Assembly: GCA_026329315.1 (NCBI GenBank) | Contig: GCA_026329315.1_4342.1 | Origin: a phage | Length of the DNA: 43,897 nt | Strand: one strand, 5' to 3' | Shown: in pieces, positions 11,296-39,760 of the stretch | Numbering within the stretch: the first letter of the stretch is position 1 | Layout of the letters: the number at the start of each line of letters is the position of its first letter | Notes under the pieces: generated by a model | What the model was told of the DNA's origin: nothing | The model's input: the letters and a program-made list of their open reading frames with translations, nothing else | Database searches by the model: none | Made by a program: the position numbers and the translations under genes

Positions 11296-11402
11296 TCTTT
11301 AATCCTTTGGTTAAGAGGTTACTGGTTAAAGGAAATGCGCCAGACGGGAACCACCCGCTTTTCGTGTGCGACACTAGGCGCAAAATTATTCTAGCACACT
11401 AC

Positions 11403-16852: not shown

Positions 16853-17365
16853 TTAACCCCGGTACACATTAAATGAGAAGCCGTTGTTAAGACCACCACA
16901 CAGTAACGGGCGTAAGGCGTCGTCAGCGGCGGTAATCGCGGTTGTGTCCCCGCTGTTGCCGTTGTTGAAGTAGGTAACTGTTACCGCACCCTCTACACGC
17001 TCGGTCTGCACGGAACGTCCATCGGAGTTAGCCCGAACATCAGTGCCCGCTCCATACGTAACAGCGGCGATTACCTGCGCCCGGATTAACTGCGGTGGGA
17101 TAACATTATCAGCTACAGGGAAACCATTCAACGTTACGCCAGTGCGAGGGTACGCCAGAGACTGTTCGGCGGACACCCGACGACCGCACATCCGCGGCTC
17201 TGCAAGCCCGACATAAGTAGCACCGTTGCGCAGGGCCGCCTCTACGGCGGTATCGTCTGCGGGTAGCTCCAGACCATAATTAGCCGCTAACGCGCGGGCG
17301 TCAGCCAGACTAATGTAACTGTCAGCATTAGGTACGATTTCGCCCGTTTCCACGATTAGAGGCAT
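16853..17365 (-). CDS. head completion / connector protein (hypothetical)
   Basis: ORF in capsid-to-tail interval, ATG start. Confidence 0.35.
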   Translation of the reverse strand: MPLIVETGEIVPNADSYISLADARALAANYGLELPADDTAVEAALRNGATYVGLAEPRMCGRRVSAEQSLAYPRTGVTLNGFPVADNVIPPQLIRAQVIAAVTYGAGTDVRANSDGRSVQTERVEGAVTVTYFNNGNSGDTTAITAADDALRPLLCGGLNNGFSFNVYRG

Positions 17366-17369
17366 AAAT

Positions 17370-17548
17370 TATTCCTCTGACTTACGGCGACGACGTTTAG
17401 TACCACCGCCGTTGTTGTGCGCTTCTTCGTTATCTGGTTGCGTTGCCACAAGCTCATCCGGTTCTACAACACCGCGAACGGGCATCACCTGACCGTCAAC
17501 AACATCAACGTGGGTGTACTTTTCGCGGATTACATAATTATCTGCCAT
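17370..17548 (-). CDS. small protein with basic C-terminal tail (59 aa)
   Basis: AAGGAAAGG RBS; ends in RRRRRK; below ORF-track cutoff. Confidence 0.3.
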
Positions 17549-18213: not shown

Positions 18214-19263
18214 TTAAGCCCCGACACCAGTTACCAGGAAGGCAATCGGTACATGCTTACGGTCAACCACACGGTTCCAGTTGGAAGCGTTCGCCAGGTC
18301 CTGCCAGGAAGCAGAGCGGGCGATAGTCTCGGTGCCGTTGCCGGTGATTACAGTGCTGGTGAAACTGTAACCAAACGGATGCAGCAACCAGGTCTTACGG
18401 GTCCACAGGGTTTCGACACCACCACCGTTACCGCGAGACGCTTCGCGCTCGTATTCCAGCGGGTTTGACGGAGAACCTTCGCCGTAACCGATAGCACCGT
18501 TGCCGAAGATGATGGAGATGAACTTACGGCTGTTGTCAGTTCCGACTACGGTCATGCTGTCGTCAACAATCACACGATAGCCCTGGTAGGTGGCGAACAT
18601 GGTGTTGTTGTCAGCGTCGCGAATGAAGTCGATAAGCTGCTGCTTACGCGCCTGCGCATAAACGAAGCTGTGCATCGCGATAGCGCCAAGCACTTCACCA
18701 CCGTTACCCATCAGCGCATCGCCCATAGTCTGGGTAGCATCGATGAACGCGCCGGAGTCGAAGCCCAGAGTAGCGGACACGTCAATAACCATGTCGTTCC
18801 GCTCGTGGTACGCATCGGTAGCCGCTACGTTATCATTGTACAGACCGAGCGCGGTAGCAATAAGACGGCGTTGTGCCTGACGCTGCCAGAAGTTATCCAG
18901 ACGGGAAGCCACGGATTGCAGCGGATTCTGGCTGGTCAGTTCTACCGTCAGGTCAGCCTGACCAAAACCTTCGTTCAGGTAAGCTACGCGAACATCCATC
19001 TCACCGGTTTGCACGTTACGCGGGGTGGCGACGTCCTGATATACGTCGTTCGAGTAGTTCGGCTCGATAGAGGTATCAATAGCTTTCCAGTACGGCAGGA
19101 CCGCTTTGTTGGACGGGCCGTTTGCGATAGCGGCGGCATACGGAGTCGAGGTAAGGATACCGGACTGGAAGAACGCGGTTTTCTCTACCGGGTCCTCTGT
19201 CATGTAGGACAGGATTACCGATTCTTTACCAGTTACGATGTCGCCGATAGTAGTAATTGCCAT
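18214..19263 (-). CDS. major capsid protein
   Basis: 349 aa ORF directly after scaffold-like gene, followed by strong terminator. Confidence 0.6.
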   Translation of the reverse strand: MAITTIGDIVTGKESVILSYMTEDPVEKTAFFQSGILTSTPYAAAIANGPSNKAVLPYWKAIDTSIEPNYSNDVYQDVATPRNVQTGEMDVRVAYLNEGFGQADLTVELTSQNPLQSVASRLDNFWQRQAQRRLIATALGLYNDNVAATDAYHERNDMVIDVSATLGFDSGAFIDATQTMGDALMGNGGEVLGAIAMHSFVYAQARKQQLIDFIRDADNNTMFATYQGYRVIVDDSMTVVGTDNSRKFISIIFGNGAIGYGEGSPSNPLEYEREASRGNGGGVETLWTRKTWLLHPFGYSFTSTVITGNGTETIARSASWQDLANASNWNRVVDRKHVPIAFLVTGVGA

Positions 19264-19967
19264 TATTTTTTCCTCAGGGCTTTAAGTTGCCGTTCAAATT
19301 CGGCAGGGTTCGATTCGTACAGAGCGATACGCTCCGCTTCACTCATGTCTTTAAACGCTGGTGCGGCCCCGCCGCCTTTGCTACCGGAAGCCCCGCCGCC
19401 GGAAGCTGCATTTGCTTTAATCAAATGTGAAAACGCTTTGTGTTCTCGCAAGTATTTGCGGAACTGTTCCGGGTCAGTCGTGATTACGTTGCCGTCTGCG
19501 CCAACAAACTTAGTAACCACATCATCGCCTTCGAACTCAGTCTTAACGAACGGCGCAAGAATGTCCACTGCTTCTGGGGTAATAAAGTCACCCGCGAAAG
19601 AGCCTAGCACCGCTTTACGTTCGCTGCCGAGGATACGCTCTGCCATTCTGGAGATGCGACCGTCTTTCTCGGCTAACACCGGGTCATACTGGCTACGAAT
19701 CGTCTTTTCGAACTCATCCATCTTACCAGCGGCTTTTAACGCCTCCTGGTGCGCGCGCTGCCGTTCTTCTTCGGCCTCTTTTGCTTTGCGAGCGGCTTCT
19801 TTCTTCTCCGCCAACAATGCTTCCTGATTAGCCTTAAGCCCGGCAACTTCTTTCTCAATCAGCGCCTGAACTTCTTCAGCGGTGAACATTTTCGGCGCGT
19901 CACCGCCACCAGCTTTATCTTCTGCCCCAGCTTCTTCCTGGAACGGATAACGTAAAAAACGATTCAT
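19263..19967 (-). CDS. scaffolding protein
   Basis: E/K/A-rich coiled-coil protein upstream of capsid gene; start chosen at first ATG (track start is TTG at 20021). Confidence 0.5.
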   Translation of the reverse strand: MNRFLRYPFQEEAGAEDKAGGGDAPKMFTAEEVQALIEKEVAGLKANQEALLAEKKEAARKAKEAEEERQRAHQEALKAAGKMDEFEKTIRSQYDPVLAEKDGRISRMAERILGSERKAVLGSFAGDFITPEAVDILAPFVKTEFEGDDVVTKFVGADGNVITTDPEQFRKYLREHKAFSHLIKANAASGGGASGSKGGGAAPAFKDMSEAERIALYESNPAEFERQLKALRKK

Positions 19968-20049
19968 AGTCAGTATGTCCCCTGGACGTTGGAACCCGGG
20001 CCACCCGGATTTACATGTCAAGAATAAATTATTCCAACATGCAAGGCAA

Positions 20050-20313
20050 CTATTCCAGAATATTCCTCACATAATCCTGCAACTGGAATACTTTCAGACG
20101 CAGTTGCCGCACGCATTCGGCGTTCTGAACGTCTATAGCCAAATCCTCGTCAGCATCGCTACTTGGCGCTGCCAGTTTGCACGGAGGCTGCATCATCGTC
20201 GTATCCGGTAATGGAATTAGCGTTTGCGACGGCGCGGGACTTGAGCTGCACGCGCTCAGGGTCAAAAGTGCACCCGCTGCGACCAGGCGTTTTAATGTAC
20301 TTAACGACTTCAC
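20050..20313 (-). CDS. o-spanin (Rz1-like outer-membrane lipoprotein)
   Basis: Signal peptide with lipobox LTLSAC, proline-rich mature region; GTG start with GAGGTGA RBS; overlaps the Rz-like gene out of frame. Confidence 0.6.
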   Translation of the reverse strand: MKSLSTLKRLVAAGALLTLSACSSSPAPSQTLIPLPDTTMMQPPCKLAAPSSDADEDLAIDVQNAECVRQLRLKVFQLQDYVRNILE

Positions 20314-20545
20314 GGGTAATCACCTCTGATTTCGTCTTGCCTTTGGAATCGGCGGCGGCGGCCTTAGATTCGTCCTGCTGCTGCCGTTGTGTTTTCTTAG
20401 CTAACTCAGCCTGTGCTTTTTGCTGTTGCTGCGAAACGAGATTAGCGCGGCCTTCGTGCCAGCCGCTGCGGTACTGATAAATGCCGTGTGTGTAAGCCAG
20501 GATGATGAAACATGCTCCTGCTACGACGGTTGCTTTAAGATTCAT
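20159..20545 (-). CDS. i-spanin (Rz-like)
   Basis: N-terminal TM helix, Q/A/K-rich coiled-coil periplasmic region; AAAGGAG RBS. Confidence 0.6.
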   Translation of the reverse strand: MNLKATVVAGACFIILAYTHGIYQYRSGWHEGRANLVSQQQQKAQAELAKKTQRQQQDESKAAAADSKGKTKSEVITREVVKYIKTPGRSGCTFDPERVQLKSRAVANANSITGYDDDAASVQTGSAK

Positions 20546-20796
20546 GTTTCTCCTTTCTCGATAAGTAAAGCCCCGCCTTAAAGCGGGGCGCTAGTCCTTA
20601 TCATTTAAACATAGAAACGGCGTAATCTCAGTAAACCAGTTACTTTTTACACAAGCAATAGAGTATGGCCCTTCCGAACGCGTCAGCGTAACTACACTCA
20701 GGACTTACGTCCCGCTCCGTTACCTGCCCGCGCCGCGGTCGCTTGTTCATACTTCACAAGCTCAGGTGGAGCTTATCATATTTTTAGTGAAAAGTC

Positions 20797-20812
20797 AACT
20801 ATTCGAATAGTT
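20797..20812. repeat. perfect 16-bp palindrome AACTATTCGAATAGTT
   Basis: Read directly; half-sites match the promoter-embedded palindrome but in everted arrangement. Confidence 0.7.
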
Positions 20813-20864
20813 TATTCCAACATTTACAATTGAGCGGAATAACTGGAATAAGTAAATAAATAGT

Positions 20865-20893
20865 TTGCACACCCCAATATAATAGGGTACTAT
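20865..20893 (+). promoter_or_regulatory. sigma70-like promoter TTGCAC-N17-TACTAT with palindrome ATAGGGTACTAT
   Basis: Near-identical to the 11403 promoter; precedes + strand gene at 20921. Confidence 0.5.
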
Positions 20894-20920
20894 TCAGTTA
20901 ACTTAAGCAGGAGGTGAAAA

Positions 20921-21124
20921 ATGTATGCAATTTGCGAAGTAGTTCAAGAGTTCGATGAAGAGTTCGACGGTGACTTGTGCCGTGTTAAAAAGGTTCTGCA
21001 GGTTTTCCCTGACGCAATGTCTGCTTACAAGGCATTAGATGTATTTGAACCTGGAAGATACGGGGATTATGACACTGTTCTGAGGGTCGTCCACGAGCAG
21101 GATTTAAACACAAGATTCCGTTGA
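20921..21124 (+). CDS. small acidic protein (67 aa), opposite-strand moron
   Basis: AGGAGG RBS, own promoter and terminator, inserted between head genes. Confidence 0.55.
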   Translation: MYAICEVVQEFDEEFDGDLCRVKKVLQVFPDAMSAYKALDVFEPGRYGDYDTVLRVVHEQDLNTRFR

Positions 21125-21131
21125 AAACTAA

Positions 21132-21155
21132 GGCCCCTTAATGGGGCCTTTTATC
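21132..21155. terminator. bidirectional rho-independent terminator (GGCCCC-TTAAT-GGGGCC)
   Basis: GC stem followed by TTTTATC on + strand and TTAGTTTTC on - strand. Confidence 0.6.
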
Positions 21156-21615
21156 ATTCGGGCTTAGTGACCTTCGCAGCTTTACTGACAGCCTCTACAC
21201 CATCAGCATCGGTAACTTTAACGAAGTATTCACCAACTGCATTAACCGTCAGAGACAAGGCCTCTTCCGGGGCGTTTACCACTTCCTTACCGTCTTTGTA
21301 CCAGGTCAGAGCATACGGTGCTTTACCCGCCTTAACTTCGACAGTGATAGTTGCGCTGCCATCTGTAAGTTCAGTGTCTTTCGGTTGCACAGAGAAATAC
21401 ACGTCACCAGCGTCCGCCAGATACGGAATTTCATAAAGCATACCAGCGGCAGAGAGTGCGATACCTGTCTTGTCTGCAAACGGCGTATCGTCTACTGGTG
21501 TACCGAGTACACTTTCATCTTCAATAAACACCACGTTCTCGCCAGAGCCAGACACGCGGGCGTACTGGACTACGCGACGCGACGGTACATCAGTTACTTT
21601 GAAAAAGCCCATCAT
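21154..21615 (-). CDS. Ig-like domain protein (possible head decoration)
   Basis: C-terminal motif APYALTWYKDGKEV resembles bacterial Ig-like domain; paralogous in motif to 17585-17935. Confidence 0.4.
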   Translation of the reverse strand: MMGFFKVTDVPSRRVVQYARVSGSGENVVFIEDESVLGTPVDDTPFADKTGIALSAAGMLYEIPYLADAGDVYFSVQPKDTELTDGSATITVEVKAGKAPYALTWYKDGKEVVNAPEEALSLTVNAVGEYFVKVTDADGVEAVSKAAKVTKPE

Positions 21616-24221: not shown

Positions 24222-25493
24222 TTAAAGTGCGAAAGTCACCGGGACATTAATAACTGGTTTGCGAATCGGCATTTCATACGCGATAGGATATGTGGTCCCG
24301 TCGTTCGGGTGGTCCACACCACCCGATTTATCTGGTTCGCCGTTCTTGTCGTAAGCCTGTTGCTCAAGGCATCGCGCCGTAACCGGGCATGCCTGCTCAT
24401 TAATCATGACCATACCAGATTCAAGCGCCTTGTTCATTGCTGATACGCGGTCTTTAACCGACGGGTTTGTTGATTTGGCGCGTACTTCGAAACCGGCCTG
24501 CTGTAACTGAGCGATGTCTGAGGTACTGGCGTTGTTGCTTTTACGGTTTTTGCCGCTGGCGTCCGGGTACATAACGATATAGTGGCCCTTACTTTTCCAT
24601 CGCTCAGTTATGGCCCGCACTACGTCAGGCGTATCGAACATATCAACCAACTCGGCAACAGCGTGCCAGACCTTACCGCGTTGCACGTAAACCGTGCTCG
24701 CCATGTGACCTACGTTAAAGTCCTGCCCAATATACAGAGTCTCGCCGGGATTGATTGTTTCGCGACTGCTGTTTTTCCTGCGGTCGTAAGCATAGTATAC
24801 CGTTCCGGACGTGAGGTTTACGAACTTGCCGTCGATGTAGGCGTCAATCAACTGACCTGGGTATGTGTCGCGTAACGACTGCACATAATCTTCTGGCAGG
24901 AACGGGTTAGACAGGGTGGACGCCTGAATCATCTCGTAGCCTGGATTCTTTTTGACTACCCAGCGGTCATGTACGAAACGGAATCCTTCCGGAGTAGTGA
25001 ACACGGAAACGGTATTAGCAGGTTTCGGTGTAATAGGTTTATATGTCCGCGGCAACTGGCGGTTACGGGCGATGACTTTGTTCCACGCGTGCTCGGCGTG
25101 CTCCATGTTAAGGGTGTCCAACTCGTCGATTTTCGCACGAAACGATTCGTAGCCAACGATTCTTGCTGGATTATCAAGTGTACGCAGAACAAAATCCCCA
25201 AATTGTCCGGAAGACGTATAGATTATGTTGTCAGACTTGTTGTATTTGTACCGGATACCCCAGTCGGTGAGCTTTTCTTCCATACGCGGTGCAAGGATGA
25301 GGCGCACCAGGTCATAGGTCGGCTCATACATGGCGATGATAGAATCGCTACCACCTTCCATGCTGTCGAGTAGTGCAGAGTTGCACATAACTTCGGATTT
25401 ACCCGTACCGAAGCCAGCTACGAATGCCGGAAACTTGCAATGCATACCGAGAAACGCGCCTTGCGGCTCCGTTGCCGTGATATTAACGTTCAC
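24222..25493 (-). CDS. terminase large subunit
   Basis: Walker A-like GFGTGKS near N-terminus; GTG start with AAGGTGGTG RBS overlapping small-subunit stop. Confidence 0.7.
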   Translation of the reverse strand: MNVNITATEPQGAFLGMHCKFPAFVAGFGTGKSEVMCNSALLDSMEGGSDSIIAMYEPTYDLVRLILAPRMEEKLTDWGIRYKYNKSDNIIYTSSGQFGDFVLRTLDNPARIVGYESFRAKIDELDTLNMEHAEHAWNKVIARNRQLPRTYKPITPKPANTVSVFTTPEGFRFVHDRWVVKKNPGYEMIQASTLSNPFLPEDYVQSLRDTYPGQLIDAYIDGKFVNLTSGTVYYAYDRRKNSSRETINPGETLYIGQDFNVGHMASTVYVQRGKVWHAVAELVDMFDTPDVVRAITERWKSKGHYIVMYPDASGKNRKSNNASTSDIAQLQQAGFEVRAKSTNPSVKDRVSAMNKALESGMVMINEQACPVTARCLEQQAYDKNGEPDKSGGVDHPNDGTTYPIAYEMPIRKPVINVPVTFAL

Positions 25494-25992
25494 CGGACAC
25501 CACCTTAATTGTTACTTCGCTGATTGGCTCGTCGCGTACTTCTTCGGCGACAACTGTTTTATTCAGGCCCAGTTTCGCGGCAGCAAACGTAGCCGAGATG
25601 CCCGCGGCCCCTGTCTCAGTGAAGTATGCCTCTTCCAGGGCCTGGGCGGTTTCGTATGCTTCTGCAAATGCTGGAATCTCGCGCAGCCACAGCTTAATTA
25701 TCGGGATAGTTACGCCGATGTGTAAGGCGAAGCGGGCCAGTGACGGCGGCTTATCCTGAATCAGTGGGCGTTCATCACCCTTAGACGTTGGCACAAGCTC
25801 CCACGACGTGCGGTCAAAGAAACGAATCAATTCGTCGCAATAGTCCGGGTCCCACAGCGCAGCGGAATTACGGGATGATTGATAAAGGCTCTGTTTACCG
25901 CGCGGTTGTTTACGGCGACGGTTTGCGCTAACAGCTTCTTCATGTGCAGCTTGCACCACCTCTGGCGATGGCTGCTTAAGTTTCAGCTTCAT
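25483..25992 (-). CDS. terminase small subunit
   Basis: Immediately upstream of large subunit; ATG at 25992 with AAGGGG RBS. Confidence 0.5.
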   Translation of the reverse strand: MKLKLKQPSPEVVQAAHEEAVSANRRRKQPRGKQSLYQSSRNSAALWDPDYCDELIRFFDRTSWELVPTSKGDERPLIQDKPPSLARFALHIGVTIPIIKLWLREIPAFAEAYETAQALEEAYFTETGAAGISATFAAAKLGLNKTVVAEEVRDEPISEVTIKVVSGER

Positions 25993-26057
25993 AGAATCCC
26001 CTTGCATATGCGTCTGACCATCAGAGCGCACCAGACGCGCCCTACGCGTCTAAATAG

Positions 26058-26211: not shown

Positions 26212-26394
26212 TCATTTGAAAAACCACAAAAGGATGCCTGCCACGCCTGATACACCCATGCCTAAAAACATAGGCCACCACAGGTAACGAGGGAGACTGT
26301 TAAACAGAGTCGGTTGTTTTATCAGCACACCGAGAAAGGCCAGCCAAAACACCAGGTCACCAGCAACATTCGTAGCCCTCAAAATCTCAATCAT
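26212..26394 (-). CDS. small two-TM membrane protein
   Basis: ATG start; two hydrophobic segments. Confidence 0.4.
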   Translation of the reverse strand: MIEILRATNVAGDLVFWLAFLGVLIKQPTLFNSLPRYLWWPMFLGMGVSGVAGILLWFFK

Positions 26395-26627
26395 TCCCCA
26401 CTCTCCCCTTTAGCAATGCGTTGCTCAGTTTTAGTGATACCTCGGCGCGTGAATAACACCGGGCTTGTCTTAACATGTGTCATCAGACGATTGTTATAAA
26501 TTACGTGGCGCTCGCAATCAACGTCTTTGCTGTACTTCGCAATCGTCATTTCGTTGATGCCGGTTTGCCGGCATGTCTCGGCCATCGTGCCGAATTCTTT
26601 AATCAGGTTCGGAATGCTGGTAATCAT
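26391..26627 (-). CDS. small HTH-like protein
   Basis: ATG at 26627 overlapping upstream stop; segment TMAETCRQTGINEMTIAKY resembles HTH. Confidence 0.35.
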   Translation of the reverse strand: MITSIPNLIKEFGTMAETCRQTGINEMTIAKYSKDVDCERHVIYNNRLMTHVKTSPVLFTRRGITKTEQRIAKGESGE

Positions 26628-26794
26628 CCTAAAAAATTCCTCGTTGTCCACATCGCATTCGGATATTTGTTATCGCGGTCCTGCACTACGGCAATCATGT
26701 TACCGCGTTGCACCAGGCAGAAATGCCGTTGTTGCTCGCCGTTGTAGCGACGCCAGATTGCTTCTTCGATTGCCGCGTTAATGTCACTGAACAT
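26624..26794 (-). CDS. small protein (56 aa, below ORF-track cutoff)
   Basis: ATGA overlap with downstream gene start. Confidence 0.3.
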   Translation of the reverse strand: MFSDINAAIEEAIWRRYNGEQQRHFCLVQRGNMIAVVQDRDNKYPNAMWTTRNFLG

Positions 26795-29893: not shown

Positions 29894-30093
29894 TTCTCCT
29901 GTTTACCAAGTCTCTTAGGTGAGCAGATAGCGCGTGCCTCTGAATCGATGGGCTTGTCACCCTGAAACAGAAAGTGCGCGTTCTCTGCAGCACGGGCGGC
30001 CGACTGGCACGCCTCCATCGAGTAAAACGTTTCTGATGCTGCCAGGTGCATCTGGCCTGCAGACAGTACCCAGATAAAGAGGATGCTGGTCAT
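29890..30093 (-). CDS. small protein with N-terminal signal-peptide-like segment
   Basis: Hydrophobic N-terminus MTSILFIWVLSAGQMHLAAS; overlapping stop/start. Confidence 0.35.
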   Translation of the reverse strand: MTSILFIWVLSAGQMHLAASETFYSMEACQSAARAAENAHFLFQGDKPIDSEARAICSPKRLGKQEK

Positions 30094-30590
30094 TTCAGTT
30101 TAACCCCGCAATCCAGACACTTTTTAGTAAACCCCGGCGCAAAGCCCTTCCGCAAACCAACGGTATTAGTATGCTGACAATCGTTCAATTCCGCTTCTTG
30201 CTTACCGCATTTAGCGCAAACGAAGTAGTCGCCTTTTTCATCCAGAACCCAATCATGGTCACATTCTTTGCGCACCCCACATTTCTTGTACATCGCACCT
30301 TTATAGAAAACGTACCGATTGTGGGCACACTCCTGAGCATCATCTTTACGGCAACCGGATTGCTCCTGTTCGCGGATAAGTTTGTACGCCTCCGCGTCAC
30401 CCGTAGCTTTAACCAACGCCATATGCAACTCCTTAATCTGCGCCGAAGCATCTCGTAACTGATTCTTAAGTGACTGCACCTCGTGCGCCAGGTCTTCACA
30501 CTGTTGTTTGTATGGGTTGTTAATTACCTGCTGCCGTAGCTGGTCAATAAGGTACTCGAATACTTCGTTTTTGCTACTCACCATCCCCAT
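30090..30590 (-). CDS. coiled-coil plus Cys-rich (zinc-binding-like) protein
   Basis: Multiple CxxC-type pairs (CAKCG, CLDCG) after a coiled-coil N-terminus. Confidence 0.4.
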   Translation of the reverse strand: MGMVSSKNEVFEYLIDQLRQQVINNPYKQQCEDLAHEVQSLKNQLRDASAQIKELHMALVKATGDAEAYKLIREQEQSGCRKDDAQECAHNRYVFYKGAMYKKCGVRKECDHDWVLDEKGDYFVCAKCGKQEAELNDCQHTNTVGLRKGFAPGFTKKCLDCGVKLK

Positions 30591-32241: not shown

Positions 32242-32677
32242 GAGAATAGTTACGTTGCCGTTGTGATTCTTTCGTTTCTTAAAAGAGTACGCAACGCAGT
32301 GGGTGGGCGTTAGCCCACCCCAGCGGAGTGAAGTACTCCCTACCTTACTTACGGCAACTATAGAAACTTTTAATTATCAGTGGCTTAAGAGATATGCTGC
32401 CGATGAGAATAGAGCTTGCCCAGGGCAACCGGGGATACTTACGAAGGAAAGTTAAGATAATTCATATGTTCAGTAATCTGCCGCTTAACACTTCGCTGGC
32501 GCTGGTGCGCCGCTGCGTTTCAAGCGGGTATTACAAGGTGAACAGGAATCAAAGTAACTAAGATATAGAAGCACCTTAAACGAAGATTTTCATAATGTCA
32601 ATATGTGCAATTATGTTTTATTTCCCATTATTCGCAATGTATACTTGGTTTCGTTAACTGATAATGGGGGTTTGAGA

Positions 32678-32848
32678 ATGACGCAGAATGAGGTAGCTGA
32701 GCGTATTGGGGTTACTCGTCGAACGCTGAATAACTGGCTAAAGAGTGGGAAGTTCCCTGATTGCTGTATTCGCATTATGGGCCGTCGTCAGCCAGGTACG
32801 TTTGACCCAGAGAAAGTGGAAGCGTGGATTAAGGAGAACGTGAAATGA
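32678..32848 (+). CDS. AlpA-family HTH DNA-binding protein
   Basis: VAERIGVTRRTLNNWLKSGKFP matches the AlpA/excisionase-like HTH pattern. Confidence 0.55.
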   Translation: MTQNEVAERIGVTRRTLNNWLKSGKFPDCCIRIMGRRQPGTFDPEKVEAWIKENVK

Positions 32849-33078
32849 CCGAGTTTCAGTCACGCGTATTCACGGCGGTCGTTTCGTTGACACGTAAAAA
32901 AGGGTCGTGCAGTGTTATCGACTTGCGCCGCAGTTATTTTAAGTACTATAGTTCCGTCATTATTGAAGGGTCGTTAAAAGTGCTGGTTAAATCTGGCGTC
33001 GTGAAAAATGTTGGCGGGAAATATAGTGCCTTTGCTGAAGTTCGCGGAATGACCGCTACTTTAGAAGACCTGGAATAA
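32845..33078 (+). CDS. hypothetical protein
   Basis: ATGA overlap with upstream gene. Confidence 0.4.
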   Translation: MTEFQSRVFTAVVSLTRKKGSCSVIDLRRSYFKYYSSVIIEGSLKVLVKSGVVKNVGGKYSAFAEVRGMTATLEDLE

Positions 33079-35611: not shown

Positions 35612-35827
35612 TCAAGCCCCTTCACCGAACGCCAGCCACTTAGCGTCTACTTCCAGCACTTCCGCCAGTTTAAACAACGTTGCCGGGCGGACGTCCTGAG
35701 TTACACCGAGAGCCAGCTGGTTAATTGCGCTCTGGGAAACGCCGGTCAGGATCGCCAGACGGCGCTGGGAGATGCCGAGTTCTTTACGGCGTTGCTCTAC
35801 ACGGATGCCTAGTTCGGATGGTTGCAT
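35612..35827 (-). CDS. XRE-family HTH transcriptional regulator (Cro/CI-like)
   Basis: RRKELGISQRRLAILTGVSQSAINQL is a canonical XRE HTH; AAGGAG RBS; terminator hairpin at its 3' end. Confidence 0.7.
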   Translation of the reverse strand: MQPSELGIRVEQRRKELGISQRRLAILTGVSQSAINQLALGVTQDVRPATLFKLAEVLEVDAKWLAFGEGA

Positions 35828-39481: not shown

Positions 39482-39760
39482 ATGGCAGCGGAACTTAAGA
39501 GATACAGACGCATCACATACTGCAAATTTTGTAAGGCAGAAGGTAAAAAAGTTAGAGCAATTTGGATGACTAAATACCCTCCAGCTTACGGTGTACGAGA
39601 CTGGTATAAACACTATGCATGCGAGGAGCATAAACATTTAATAGAAGACACAGACCCAGACCGGACTTGGGCAGAAATCATAGAACGCGGTAAAAACAAG
39701 AAACAAGATCGCGACGACCATCTCACAGAAGCAGACTATCAGACGTGGTACAGACTATGA
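39482..39760 (+). CDS. small Cys/His-rich protein
   Basis: CKFC ... C..H pattern; upstream of polymerase. Confidence 0.35.
   Translation: MAAELKRYRRITYCKFCKAEGKKVRAIWMTKYPPAYGVRDWYKHYACEEHKHLIEDTDPDRTWAEIIERGKNKKQDRDDHLTEADYQTWYRL

Follow-up and report, generated by a model that had tools for sequence, protein, structure and literature searches.

Among activator-dependent late promoters, the Ogr/Delta sites of P2/P4 contain a dyad near –55, and the Mor/C sites of Mu lie upstream of the –35 element and overlap it. Here, we describe two arrays of the word GGAATA/TATTCC that lie around the spanin genes Rz/Rz1 in a phage contig of 43,897 nt (GenBank assembly GCA_026329315.1, contig GCA_026329315.1_4342.1; hereafter, the window). 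The window comprises the whole, or nearly the whole, genome of a Kagunavirus (Guernseyvirinae; K1G/Jersey-like siphophage), and its region of interest shares ∼97% identity with phiEc3, K-01 and the BASEL phages Bas70-76, all of Escherichia. We call the array ahead of Rz block B and the array ahead of the scaffold gene block A, and the predicted promoters next to them P_B and P_A (Table 1). The arrays most likely represent conserved sites of protein binding at two promoters of late genes rather than a packaging signal or the scars of an insertion, and they are apparently an undescribed example of a familiar type of element.

Like the Ogr/Delta and Mor/C sites, the arrays accompany weak predicted σ70 core promoters before morphogenesis and lysis operons, contain a dyad upstream of or touching the –35 element, and are repeated at each late promoter. 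Unlike them, they combine a palindrome with a direct pair three helical turns away and overlap the –10 element at P_A; moreover, no homologue of those activators was found among 37 small open reading frames (ORFs), a part of the ORFs of the window, that we scanned against Pfam, PHROGs and NCBIfam.

The locus also resembles the λ region pR'-Q site-6S-tR', in which a promoter with flanking protein sites is followed by a ∼200-nt non-coding leader, a hairpin with a U-tract, and then Rz/Rz1 and head genes. A –10-like hexamer that follows the P_B –10 in Kaguna- and Jersey-type sequences may resemble a σ-dependent pause element. In contrast to λ, the scanned ORFs contain no Q-family protein, the U-tract is convincing in one lineage only (see below), and the genes for holin, endolysin and terminase are located upstream in a separate transcription unit. 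To our knowledge, λ 6S RNA is not a conserved covarying structure, unlike the leader found here. We take the λ parallel as a lead only.

A proposed arrangement of late promoters

The minus strand of the window carries, in this order, terS, terL, the portal and head morphogenesis genes, a Hoc-like gene, a terminator, Rz, Rz1, the scaffold and major capsid genes, and the head-tail and tail genes. Because the Hoc-like gene ends at the terminator and Rz-Rz1-scaffold-capsid follow on the same strand, a new minus-strand promoter is needed at this point. We propose that two co-directional σ70-type promoters restart late transcription past this terminator. P_B would drive a structured leader of ∼218 nt, which would end in a terminator-like hairpin, and then Rz/Rz1, while P_A would drive the scaffold-major capsid operon, whose mRNA would open with a conserved stem-loop. 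The GGAATA/TATTCC words would be half-sites of a protein that binds DNA sequence-specifically, arranged in either block as one 14-15-bp palindrome, GGAATAAnyTATTC(C), plus a pair of direct repeats about three helical turns further upstream, a distance that puts palindrome and pair on one helical face. At P_B, the array would reach from about –88 to –42, upstream of a weak core promoter, and this placement suggests activation by recruitment of RNA polymerase or by DNA bending; at P_A, it would run from about –52 into the –10 element. We consider it reasonably probable that a dimeric or multimeric regulator binding GGAATA half-sites controls late transcription at both promoters. This factor would be distinct from the Cro/CI-like regulator of the phage, and a NinH/Fis-like protein (26394-26651) would be the best candidate.

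Block B and the predicted promoter P_B

On the minus strand, block B reads TTATTCC-AG-TTATTCC (20851-20836), a 17-nt linker, GGAATAAACTATTC (20818-20805), GAATAGT, TTGACT, 17 bp and TGaTAAGCT. The Jersey-type version is TTATTCCAGTTATTCC, N17, GGAATACTTTATTC, AAAAAGT, AGACT, 17 bp, TGtTACGCT, and the Cornell-type version TTATTCCAATTATTCC, N16, GGAATAAATTATTC(C), AAAAGT, GGAyT, 17 bp, TGaTAACCT. Motif order and spacing are common to the three genera, with 16-17 nt between the distal pair and the core and exactly 17 bp between the –35 and –10 elements. The core is kept in all three as GGAATA-N3-TATTC, always 7 nt upstream of a –35-like pentamer; in the Cornell type it is a perfect 15-bp palindrome, GGAATAAATTATTCC. 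Based on 43 distinct Kaguna-, Jersey- and Cornell-type sequences, the words TATTCC and TTATTC are invariant, TATTC is conserved and GGAATA is conserved in at least 90%, while the linker and the flanks vary. The outer edge of the distal pair (∼20851) is where homology ends in many relatives.

In the predicted –10 element of P_B, TG, TA and CT are invariant across the same 43 sequences and n can be A, C, G or T. Retention of T-12, A-11, T-7 and the TG, with the base in between left free, is the signature of an extended –10 σ70 promoter. A –35-like element stands 17 bp away, the terminator at 21130-21150 lies upstream and Rz downstream, and this orientation and place after the terminator fit a restart of late transcription. 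We place the predicted transcription start at about 20763. The second –10-like hexamer mentioned above is found 9-11 nt downstream of the –10 element, as TGAGCT in the Kaguna type and TACGCT in the Jersey type; the Cornell type has none.

The first-pass annotation had drawn attention to a 16-bp perfect palindrome, AACTATTCGAATAGTT, made of the half-sites in everted order. It does exist at 20797-20812 and is the sole perfect palindrome of at least 14 bp in the window, but as a conserved element it does not hold up, being confined to the Kagunavirus-type module. The left half coincides with the right arm of the core palindrome, and the right half (GAATAGTT) abuts and overlaps the –35 element. 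Jersey- and Cornell-type sequences carry TTATTCAAAAAGT where the Kaguna type has the perfect palindrome. The right half stands in for the AAAAAGT of other genera and yields GAATAGTTGACT, parallel to GGAATAGTTGCCT at P_A; likewise, only in the Kaguna type is the word shared between the blocks lengthened to 12 nt (ATGTTGGAATAA).

Block A and the predicted promoter P_A

Block A, again on the minus strand, consists of GGAATA-TTCT-GGAATAG (20066-20050), TTGCCT, TGCATGT, TGGAATAATTTATTCT (20036-20021), TGACATGTAAAT, the hairpin CCGGGTGGCCCGG, a ribosome-binding site (RBS) and the scaffold ATG. In short form, it is GGAATA-N4-GGAATAG, TTGCCT, GGAATAATTTATTCT, overlapping the predicted scaffold-capsid promoter, and its core matches GGAATAANTTATTCC with one mismatch. 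In a MAFFT alignment of 40 distinct Kaguna/Jersey sequences, 23 of the 24 positions of GGAATATTCTGGAATAGTTGCCTT and 13 of the 14 positions of GGAATAATTTATTC are invariant; the adjacent linker has one invariant position out of seven, and the Rz1 coding sequence preceding the block 28 out of 70.

The first-pass annotation saw the repeat copies inside Rz1 as weakening a purely regulatory reading. For the copies in the last six Rz1 codons, this objection falls away: five of six third-codon positions are invariant there, as opposed to 2 of 22 in the codons before, and such frozen synonymous sites point to a constraint in addition to the coding one. The AACTGGAATA copy further inside Rz1 (20081-20090) is not conserved. 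Here, TATTCCAGTT occurs in only 5 of 46 related loci, most of which carry the synonymous TGTTCATGTT, and we regard this copy as probably fortuitous and not functional. Cornell-type phages carry an additional, divergent gene between Rz1 and the scaffold gene, and the C-terminus of their Rz1 is encoded differently (AAGAATGTGACAGAATGA). Despite this insertion, the block A core remains with the scaffold gene as GGAATAGTTGCCTT-N9-GGAATAATTTATTCTTGACA.

The putative core promoter TTGCCT-17-TATTCT, from which transcription would start near 20014, agrees with the consensus at 8 of 12 positions. It is weak and was missed by the promoter scan, yet its arrangement is kept in distant lineages: loci L051, L058, L056 and L059, all without GGAATA words, show TTGCAT/TTGTTA, 17 bp and TATTCT/TATATT, likewise with a hairpin 12-14 nt after the –10 element. 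The stem-loop is present in all lineages, and its flanking pairs covary (AUCCGGG/CCCGGAU, CACCGGG/CCCGGUG, AGCCGGG/CCCGGCU), although its folding energy by itself is not significant. From the conserved position of the hairpin and the covarying pairs, we read it as the likely 5′ stem-loop of the scaffold-capsid mRNA. A different –35 element, TTGACA (20015-20020, minus strand), was considered and rejected: no –10 element follows it, Jerseyviruses have TTGTTA instead, and it would fall within the transcript of the better-conserved TTGCCT-17-TATTCT.

A similar arrangement was observed upstream of the tail-chaperone/tape-measure operon (11343-11393, minus strand), where TAGAATAATTTT is followed by the hairpin GCGGGTGGTTCCCGT, just as the block A core has TGGAATAATTTATTC and then its own hairpin. 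We regard the site as a possible third late promoter, whose transcript would have a comparable 5′ stem-loop.

The predicted leader RNA upstream of Rz

The 375-bp non-coding stretch mentioned in the first-pass annotation spans 20546-20920; on one side it borders on the start of Rz (20545, minus strand), on the other on an ORF of the plus strand (20921). It is 95-99% identical in 173 of 182 phage records, against 62-95% identity of the Rz protein; these records include Salmonella Jerseyviruses whose Rz protein is merely 63-73% identical. Single-nucleotide indels in close relatives indicate that the 36-amino acid ORF annotated within the leader (e.g., Bas72_0007) is spurious and the leader non-coding.

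The predicted leader, downstream of P_B, folds more stably than expected (z = –3.18; 0 of 200 shuffles were as stable). An RNAalifold consensus of 12 Kaguna-/Jersey-type sequences comprises a long-range helix, CCGCGGYGC paired with GCRYUUCGG, with hairpins inside. Five of its 16 pairs are compensatory, and 95.3% of the cells are paired, compared with 84.9% in shuffled alignments (0 of 500) and 29-47% when the partners are slid. This covariation, contributed by essentially two clades and two variants, is suggestive. A search against Rfam gave best scores of 11-19 bits, far under the gathering scores. A covariance model built from the Kaguna and Jersey leaders found nothing in the Cornell-type, Serratia, Klebsiella or Pantoea loci, so that their leaders are at most possible homologues of this one.

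At the end of the leader, the sequence has the features of an intrinsic terminator: a hairpin of eight pairs (minus strand, 20589-20570) with the tail TTTACTTATC. Jersey- and Cornell-type phages have a hairpin of other sequence at the equivalent place, with weak U-tracts, so that the U-tract is convincing in the Kaguna type only.

Distribution among relatives and chance level

Rz/Rz1 are located between the Hoc-like and the scaffold gene in the Salmonella phages Ent2 (Jerseyvirus) and FSL SP-031 (Cornellvirus) and in Serratia phage Otaku. We compared 62 loci, 58 IMG/VR contigs among them; 61 have an Rz homologue upstream of their scaffold gene, and the sequence of the last one does not reach far enough for a decision. 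Genome-wide, TATTCC/GGAATA clusters are confined to blocks A and B in the window, Ent2 and SP-031, apart from one in SP-031, which is the start of Rz1 (ATGAATAAATTATTCC, encoding MNKLF) and a coding coincidence. The motifs of both blocks are shared by three genera, but the 20081-20090 copy and the perfect palindrome are lineage-specific.

Outside these genera, the equivalent place ahead of Rz is occupied by palindromic repeats of unrelated sequence in Klebsiella-type and unassigned contigs. Two repeat families were seen at the block B position, a 20-bp perfect palindrome, ACTCGCAAAATTTTGCGAGT, with 4-7 copies of TTGCGAG and repeats of TTTGCGAA; the loci concerned are L056, L057 and L062 (∼1100-1870) and L059 and L060 (∼1860-1960). 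Pantoea-type lineages have a near-consensus promoter upstream of Rz without repeats. Such lineage-specific palindromic repeats are what co-evolving pairs of a regulator and its sites would look like, although a host-specific factor may act instead.

The window by itself gives a weak case; the argument rests on the comparison with relatives. All exact repeats lie where the first-pass annotation had placed them: TTATTCCAACAT at 20029-20040 and 20812-20823, AACTGGAATA at 20081-20090 and 20841-20850, and extra copies of TATTCC at 20051 and 20061 and of GGAATA at 20836. Both blocks are AT-rich (25-33% GC). The 43.9 kb contain 23 copies of the hexamer, roughly as many as expected at random, and 7 of these 23 are inside the two ∼60-nt blocks. 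A 16-bp perfect palindrome arises in 54% of Markov shuffles, and nine 12-mer repeats within 1 kb were observed against 2.7 in shuffles. GGAATA is the only hexamer of the window with two clusters of at least three copies within 1 kb; for any hexamer, such paired clustering was seen in 11 of 300 shuffles (p ∼0.04). Hence none of the palindrome, the 12-mer and the 10-mer rises above chance by itself, and the paired clustering alone is mildly unusual. A one-mismatch copy of the core palindrome, GGCATAAATTATTCC at 17361-17375, falls on the RBS and ATG of the head-tail adaptor gene (16853-17365, minus strand) and is probably a coincidence.

Candidate DNA-binding proteins

The scan of the 37 small ORFs returned three DNA-binding candidates: an HTH_3, an HTH_17 and a NinH-like protein. 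The 71-amino acid HTH_3 protein (35615-35827) is Cro/CI-like, and its operator is probably the palindrome AATAG-N4-CTATT, seven copies of which lie at the –10 element or spacer of promoters in the window (11419, 20881, 30817, 32212, 35903, 38712, 42478) and four in Ent2. The same motif has been published as a “phage promoter” consensus obtained with PHIRE, tgAATAGTa-ccTATTat-T (PMC9825357). These operators and the GGAATA sites have the pentamer GAATA/TATTC in common, and both are located at promoters. However, the gap between GAATA and TATTC is 3 nt in the GGAATA sites and 6 nt in the operators, and the former are found at two late promoters, the latter at seven early or moron promoters. In SP-031, the operator is TATTA-N6-TAATA in place of AATAG-N4-CTATT, whereas GAATA-N3-TATTC is retained at both blocks. 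Replacement of the operator with the GGAATA sites left unchanged indicates that a different factor reads the latter, and we rejected the HTH_3 protein as their binder. The proposal of the first-pass annotation that the repeats could be binding sites for a second regulator agrees with what appear to be phylogenetic footprints at two predicted promoters, kept in SP-031 despite its changed operator. The HTH_17 (Xis/AlpA-like) protein (32603-32845) and its 77-amino acid neighbour (32845-33078) are disfavoured as well, since both are missing from SP-031, which keeps the blocks.

The NinH-like protein matches the GGAATA blocks in that the window, Ent2 and SP-031 encode it, while Klebsiella phage VLCpiS11a and Pantoea phage AH01 lack it. 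It is the only small protein tested whose distribution tracks the blocks in these five genomes. The 518 phage records that contain it have a composition like that of the E. coli/Salmonella Guernseyvirinae, and the three genera differ very little in its putative recognition helix. A comparison with PDB sequences gave no meaningful match. The gene lies just upstream of terS, has counterparts in L064 (41240-41479) and L063 (18987-19190), and belongs to the core genes of the E. coli/Salmonella Guernseyvirinae.

The preferred sites of λ NinH and Fis are pseudo-palindromes of 15 bp of the form G-N13-C with a 13-bp AT-rich core (PMC7166090). This pattern is matched by GGAATAAnTTATTCC, with one mismatch at 20021-20035, two at 20804-20818, and perfectly in the Cornell type. 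The pyrimidine-purine step preferred at –4/–3 and +3/+4 (PMC7166090) is not found; the site has A-T at both, that is, the order at –4/–3 is reversed, and the recognition helix also differs (NEMTIAKY vs. SRGTVRKY in λ NinH). We therefore name the NinH-like protein as a tentative candidate for the GGAATA binder, a role that these comparisons leave rather doubtful.

Alternative explanations

A host factor or the shape of the DNA might read the words instead, either as phased AT-rich, UP-like or curved DNA or as Fis/H-NS sites that boost two ordinary promoters of the host polymerase. The lineages with GGAATA blocks infect E. coli or Salmonella and those without infect Klebsiella, Pantoea or Serratia, no dedicated late activator was found among the 37 scanned ORFs, and the half-sites recur at intervals of 9-10 bp and ∼31 bp on one helical face. 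Judged by the UP-element consensus, the CAAAAAGT at about –44 to –37 of the Jersey-/Cornell-type P_B is like a proximal UP subsite. Nevertheless, conservation is word-specific while equally AT-rich linkers drift, which is unexpected for curvature or UP elements, and Klebsiella shares most nucleoid proteins with E. coli, yet Klebsiella phages use other repeats. The palindrome is also one spacer base off an ArgR box and departs from the preferred Fis pattern at –4/–3; of the consensus sequences of ArgR, RcsAB, Fis and H-NS, none fits the spacing, a comparison that we do not count as evidence. On balance, we think this explanation unlikely, if less so than the following ones. One of them holds that the repeats are chiefly boundary homologies for module exchange by recombination and only secondarily regulatory. 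The homology of relatives does stop at ∼20851, ∼20896 and ∼20915, and right past TATTCCAGTTATTCC they have either a moron (promoter, 67-amino acid ORF and terminator) or a terminator only. Moreover, Kagunavirus-type block B and leader (∼96%) precede a Jersey-type Rz (63-73% protein identity) in Salmonella phages SETP13, FSL SP-101 and LSPA1 (L035, L043 and L044; ∼2100-2420), which indicates that the promoter-leader module has been exchanged between genera. A junction would be expected there regardless, because the functional module also ends where constraint ends; in addition, recombination leaves the spacing to the –35 and –10 elements and the layout of palindrome plus direct repeats unexplained. 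We therefore consider it improbable as the main role of the repeats, even though the shared 16-nt word at the block B edge may serve as homology for such exchange. The first-pass annotation had gone further in suggesting that the repeats are scars of an event that moved the spanin genes here and could bound an indel. No relative lacking Rz/Rz1 at this position exists among the 61 examinable loci, so that the spanins were not moved in; what survives of the recombination idea is the mosaic junction at the outer edge of block B.

Arrays of short repeats are a frequent target of small terminase subunits, and known pac sites lie in or beside terS. A pac region bound by the small terminase, also raised in the first-pass annotation, would suit the headful mechanism reported for relatives (PMC9409062; PMC6776780). 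The blocks, however, lie ∼5 kb downstream of terS (25483-26031) and are present twice, each fixed to a promoter and one overlapping the start region of the scaffold transcript, and the Cornell-type insertion moves them further apart without loss of either. A packaging role is thus very improbable. We give equally little credence to the idea that an AT-rich word has clustered by chance in two intergenic regions that are themselves AT-rich. It is true that neither the palindrome nor any exact repeat exceeds the chance level when taken singly, and that the near-perfect copy at 17361-17375 is a mere RBS and start codon and the SP-031 ATGAATAAATTATTCC cluster the start of Rz1, but chance would not explain why three genera share the two cluster positions, where the motifs are invariant and the linkers variable. 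Motifs that are kept while spacers and flanks diverge, and that show dyad and direct-repeat symmetry, are rather the hallmark of a binding-site array, and we return to a dedicated GGAATA-binding regulator as the preferred explanation.

Several points weigh against this explanation too. Both core promoters are under the threshold of the consensus scan, and neither a Q-type antiterminator nor a recognised late activator was detected among the scanned ORFs. The palindrome is centred at about –48 at P_B and at about –15 at P_A, so that no single simple mode of action fits both promoters. The block A palindrome may owe some of its conservation simply to serving as AT-rich spacer and –10 element; a similar GGAAATAATTTATATT is present in L059, whose block B has no GGAATA, and L047 retains block A with a different block B. 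The link to the NinH-like protein is effectively one clade-level co-occurrence, and its PF06322 match is under threshold. The residue aligned with what we take to be Arg85 of Fis is a Glu in this protein, and A/T at –4/+4, as in the GGAATA site, is unfavourable for Fis. Finally, our literature search found no transcriptome, transcription start or pac mapping for Guernseyvirinae, nor expression or binding data.

Neighbouring features

The coordinates of all features are compiled in Table 1. Next to block B lies a moron cassette (20865-21150) consisting of a plus-strand promoter, TTTGCACACCCCAATATAATAGGGTACTATTCA, which includes an AATAG-N4-CTATT operator, a small acidic ORF and the bidirectional terminator (21130-21150). 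The 67-amino acid product of this ORF (20921-21124, plus strand) has no Pfam or PHROG match. Close relatives have the moron, another gene or the terminator alone at this place, and their blastn matches stop at ∼20851, ∼20896 or ∼20915 of the window. According to these alignments, the outer edge of block B is a mosaic junction, both for the neighbouring moron and for the swap of the promoter-leader module.

Table 1. Positions of the elements discussed in the text (window coordinates; promoters and their elements are predictions)
Feature	Position	Strand	Remarks
Block A distal direct half-site pair, GGAATA-TTCT-GGAATAG	20050-20066	–	about –52 to –36 of P_A; overlaps Rz1 RNILE codons and stop
P_A –35, TTGCCT	20044-20049	–	predicted
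Block A core palindrome, GGAATAATTTATTC	20022-20035	–	overlaps spacer and P_A –10
P_A –10, TATTCT	20021-20026	–	predicted; 17 bp from –35
Stem-loop, CCGGGTGGCCCGG	19996-20008	–	12-14 nt after P_A –10
Copy of AACTGGAATA inside Rz1	20081-20090	–	not conserved
Block B distal direct half-site pair, TTATTCC-AG-TTATTCC	20836-20851	–	about –88 to –73 of P_B
Block B core palindrome, GGAATAAACTATTC	20805-20818	–	about –55 to –42 of P_B
Perfect 16-bp palindrome, AACTATTCGAATAGTT	20797-20812	strand-neutral	Kaguna-type module only
P_B –35, TTGACT	20793-20798	–	predicted; TAGACT or TGGAyT in other genera
P_B extended –10, TGaTAAGCT	20770-20778	–	predicted; TGnTA(A/C)(G/C)CT in all types
Predicted non-coding Rz leader RNA, ∼218 nt	20546-20763	–	structured 5′ domain fits covariance model R1 at 20665-20767
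Terminator-like hairpin, GCCCCGC/GCGGGGC, then TTTACTTATC	20560-20589	–	directly before Rz RBS; called by scan
NinH/Fis-like helix-turn-helix protein, 86 amino acids	26394-26651	–	tentative candidate binder; Pfam PF06322, E = 5.8e-5, under cutoff
terS	25483-26031		in minus-strand gene order
Hoc-like gene	21154-21615	–	ends at bidirectional terminator
Bidirectional terminator	21130-21150		
Rz (i-spanin) gene	20159-20545	–	
Rz1 (o-spanin) ORF	20050-20313	–	lipobox LTLSAC; last six codons and stop are part of block A
Scaffold gene	19263-19967	–	ATG at 19967
Major capsid gene	18214-19263	–	

The long Rz1 ORF (87 amino acids from a GTG) has a proper lipoprotein signal with the lipobox LTLSAC. Several relatives annotate a 48-amino acid Rz1 product only, in which the signal peptide is missing, and this o-spanin annotation looks truncated. 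Elsewhere in the window, two small Cys-rich proteins with CxxC pairs have no family assignment: one of 166 amino acids with an N-terminal coiled coil (30093-30590, minus strand) and one of 92 amino acids (39482-39757, plus strand). Neither was detected in the comparisons with Ent2 or SP-031. Rfam and tRNA scans of the region and the window were empty. A replication origin at 20-21 kb was rejected: the cumulative GC skew has its minimum at ∼32-33 kb, in the divergent early region, and shows no inflection at 20-21 kb.

Implications for the Guernseyvirinae

The Guernseyvirinae (Jersey-, Kaguna- and Cornellviruses) are among the most often isolated therapeutic and biocontrol phages for Salmonella and E. 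coli. We found no published account of the timing of their late genes, and the only published “promoter” motif for this subfamily is probably the Cro/CI-type operator. Our analysis provides precise coordinates for two predicted late promoters, a conserved architecture of sites and a putative leader RNA that is better conserved than the surrounding genes. By analogy to λ pR'-6S-tR' without Q, one could imagine that E. coli/Salmonella Guernseyvirinae have an as yet undescribed late-gene switch made up of the blocks together with the leader, where a NinH/Fis-like late regulator would act on the GGAATA arrays and the leader with its terminator would gate the Rz-capsid-tail operon through a put-like RNA mechanism or an unrecognised antiterminator; we offer this as speculation.

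The structured leader and the NinH-like candidate are the more interesting loose ends. For phage engineering, the region is one to leave intact, and the moron slot beside block B is a natural insertion point. The NinH-like candidate, if true, would give the poorly understood NinH family a function.

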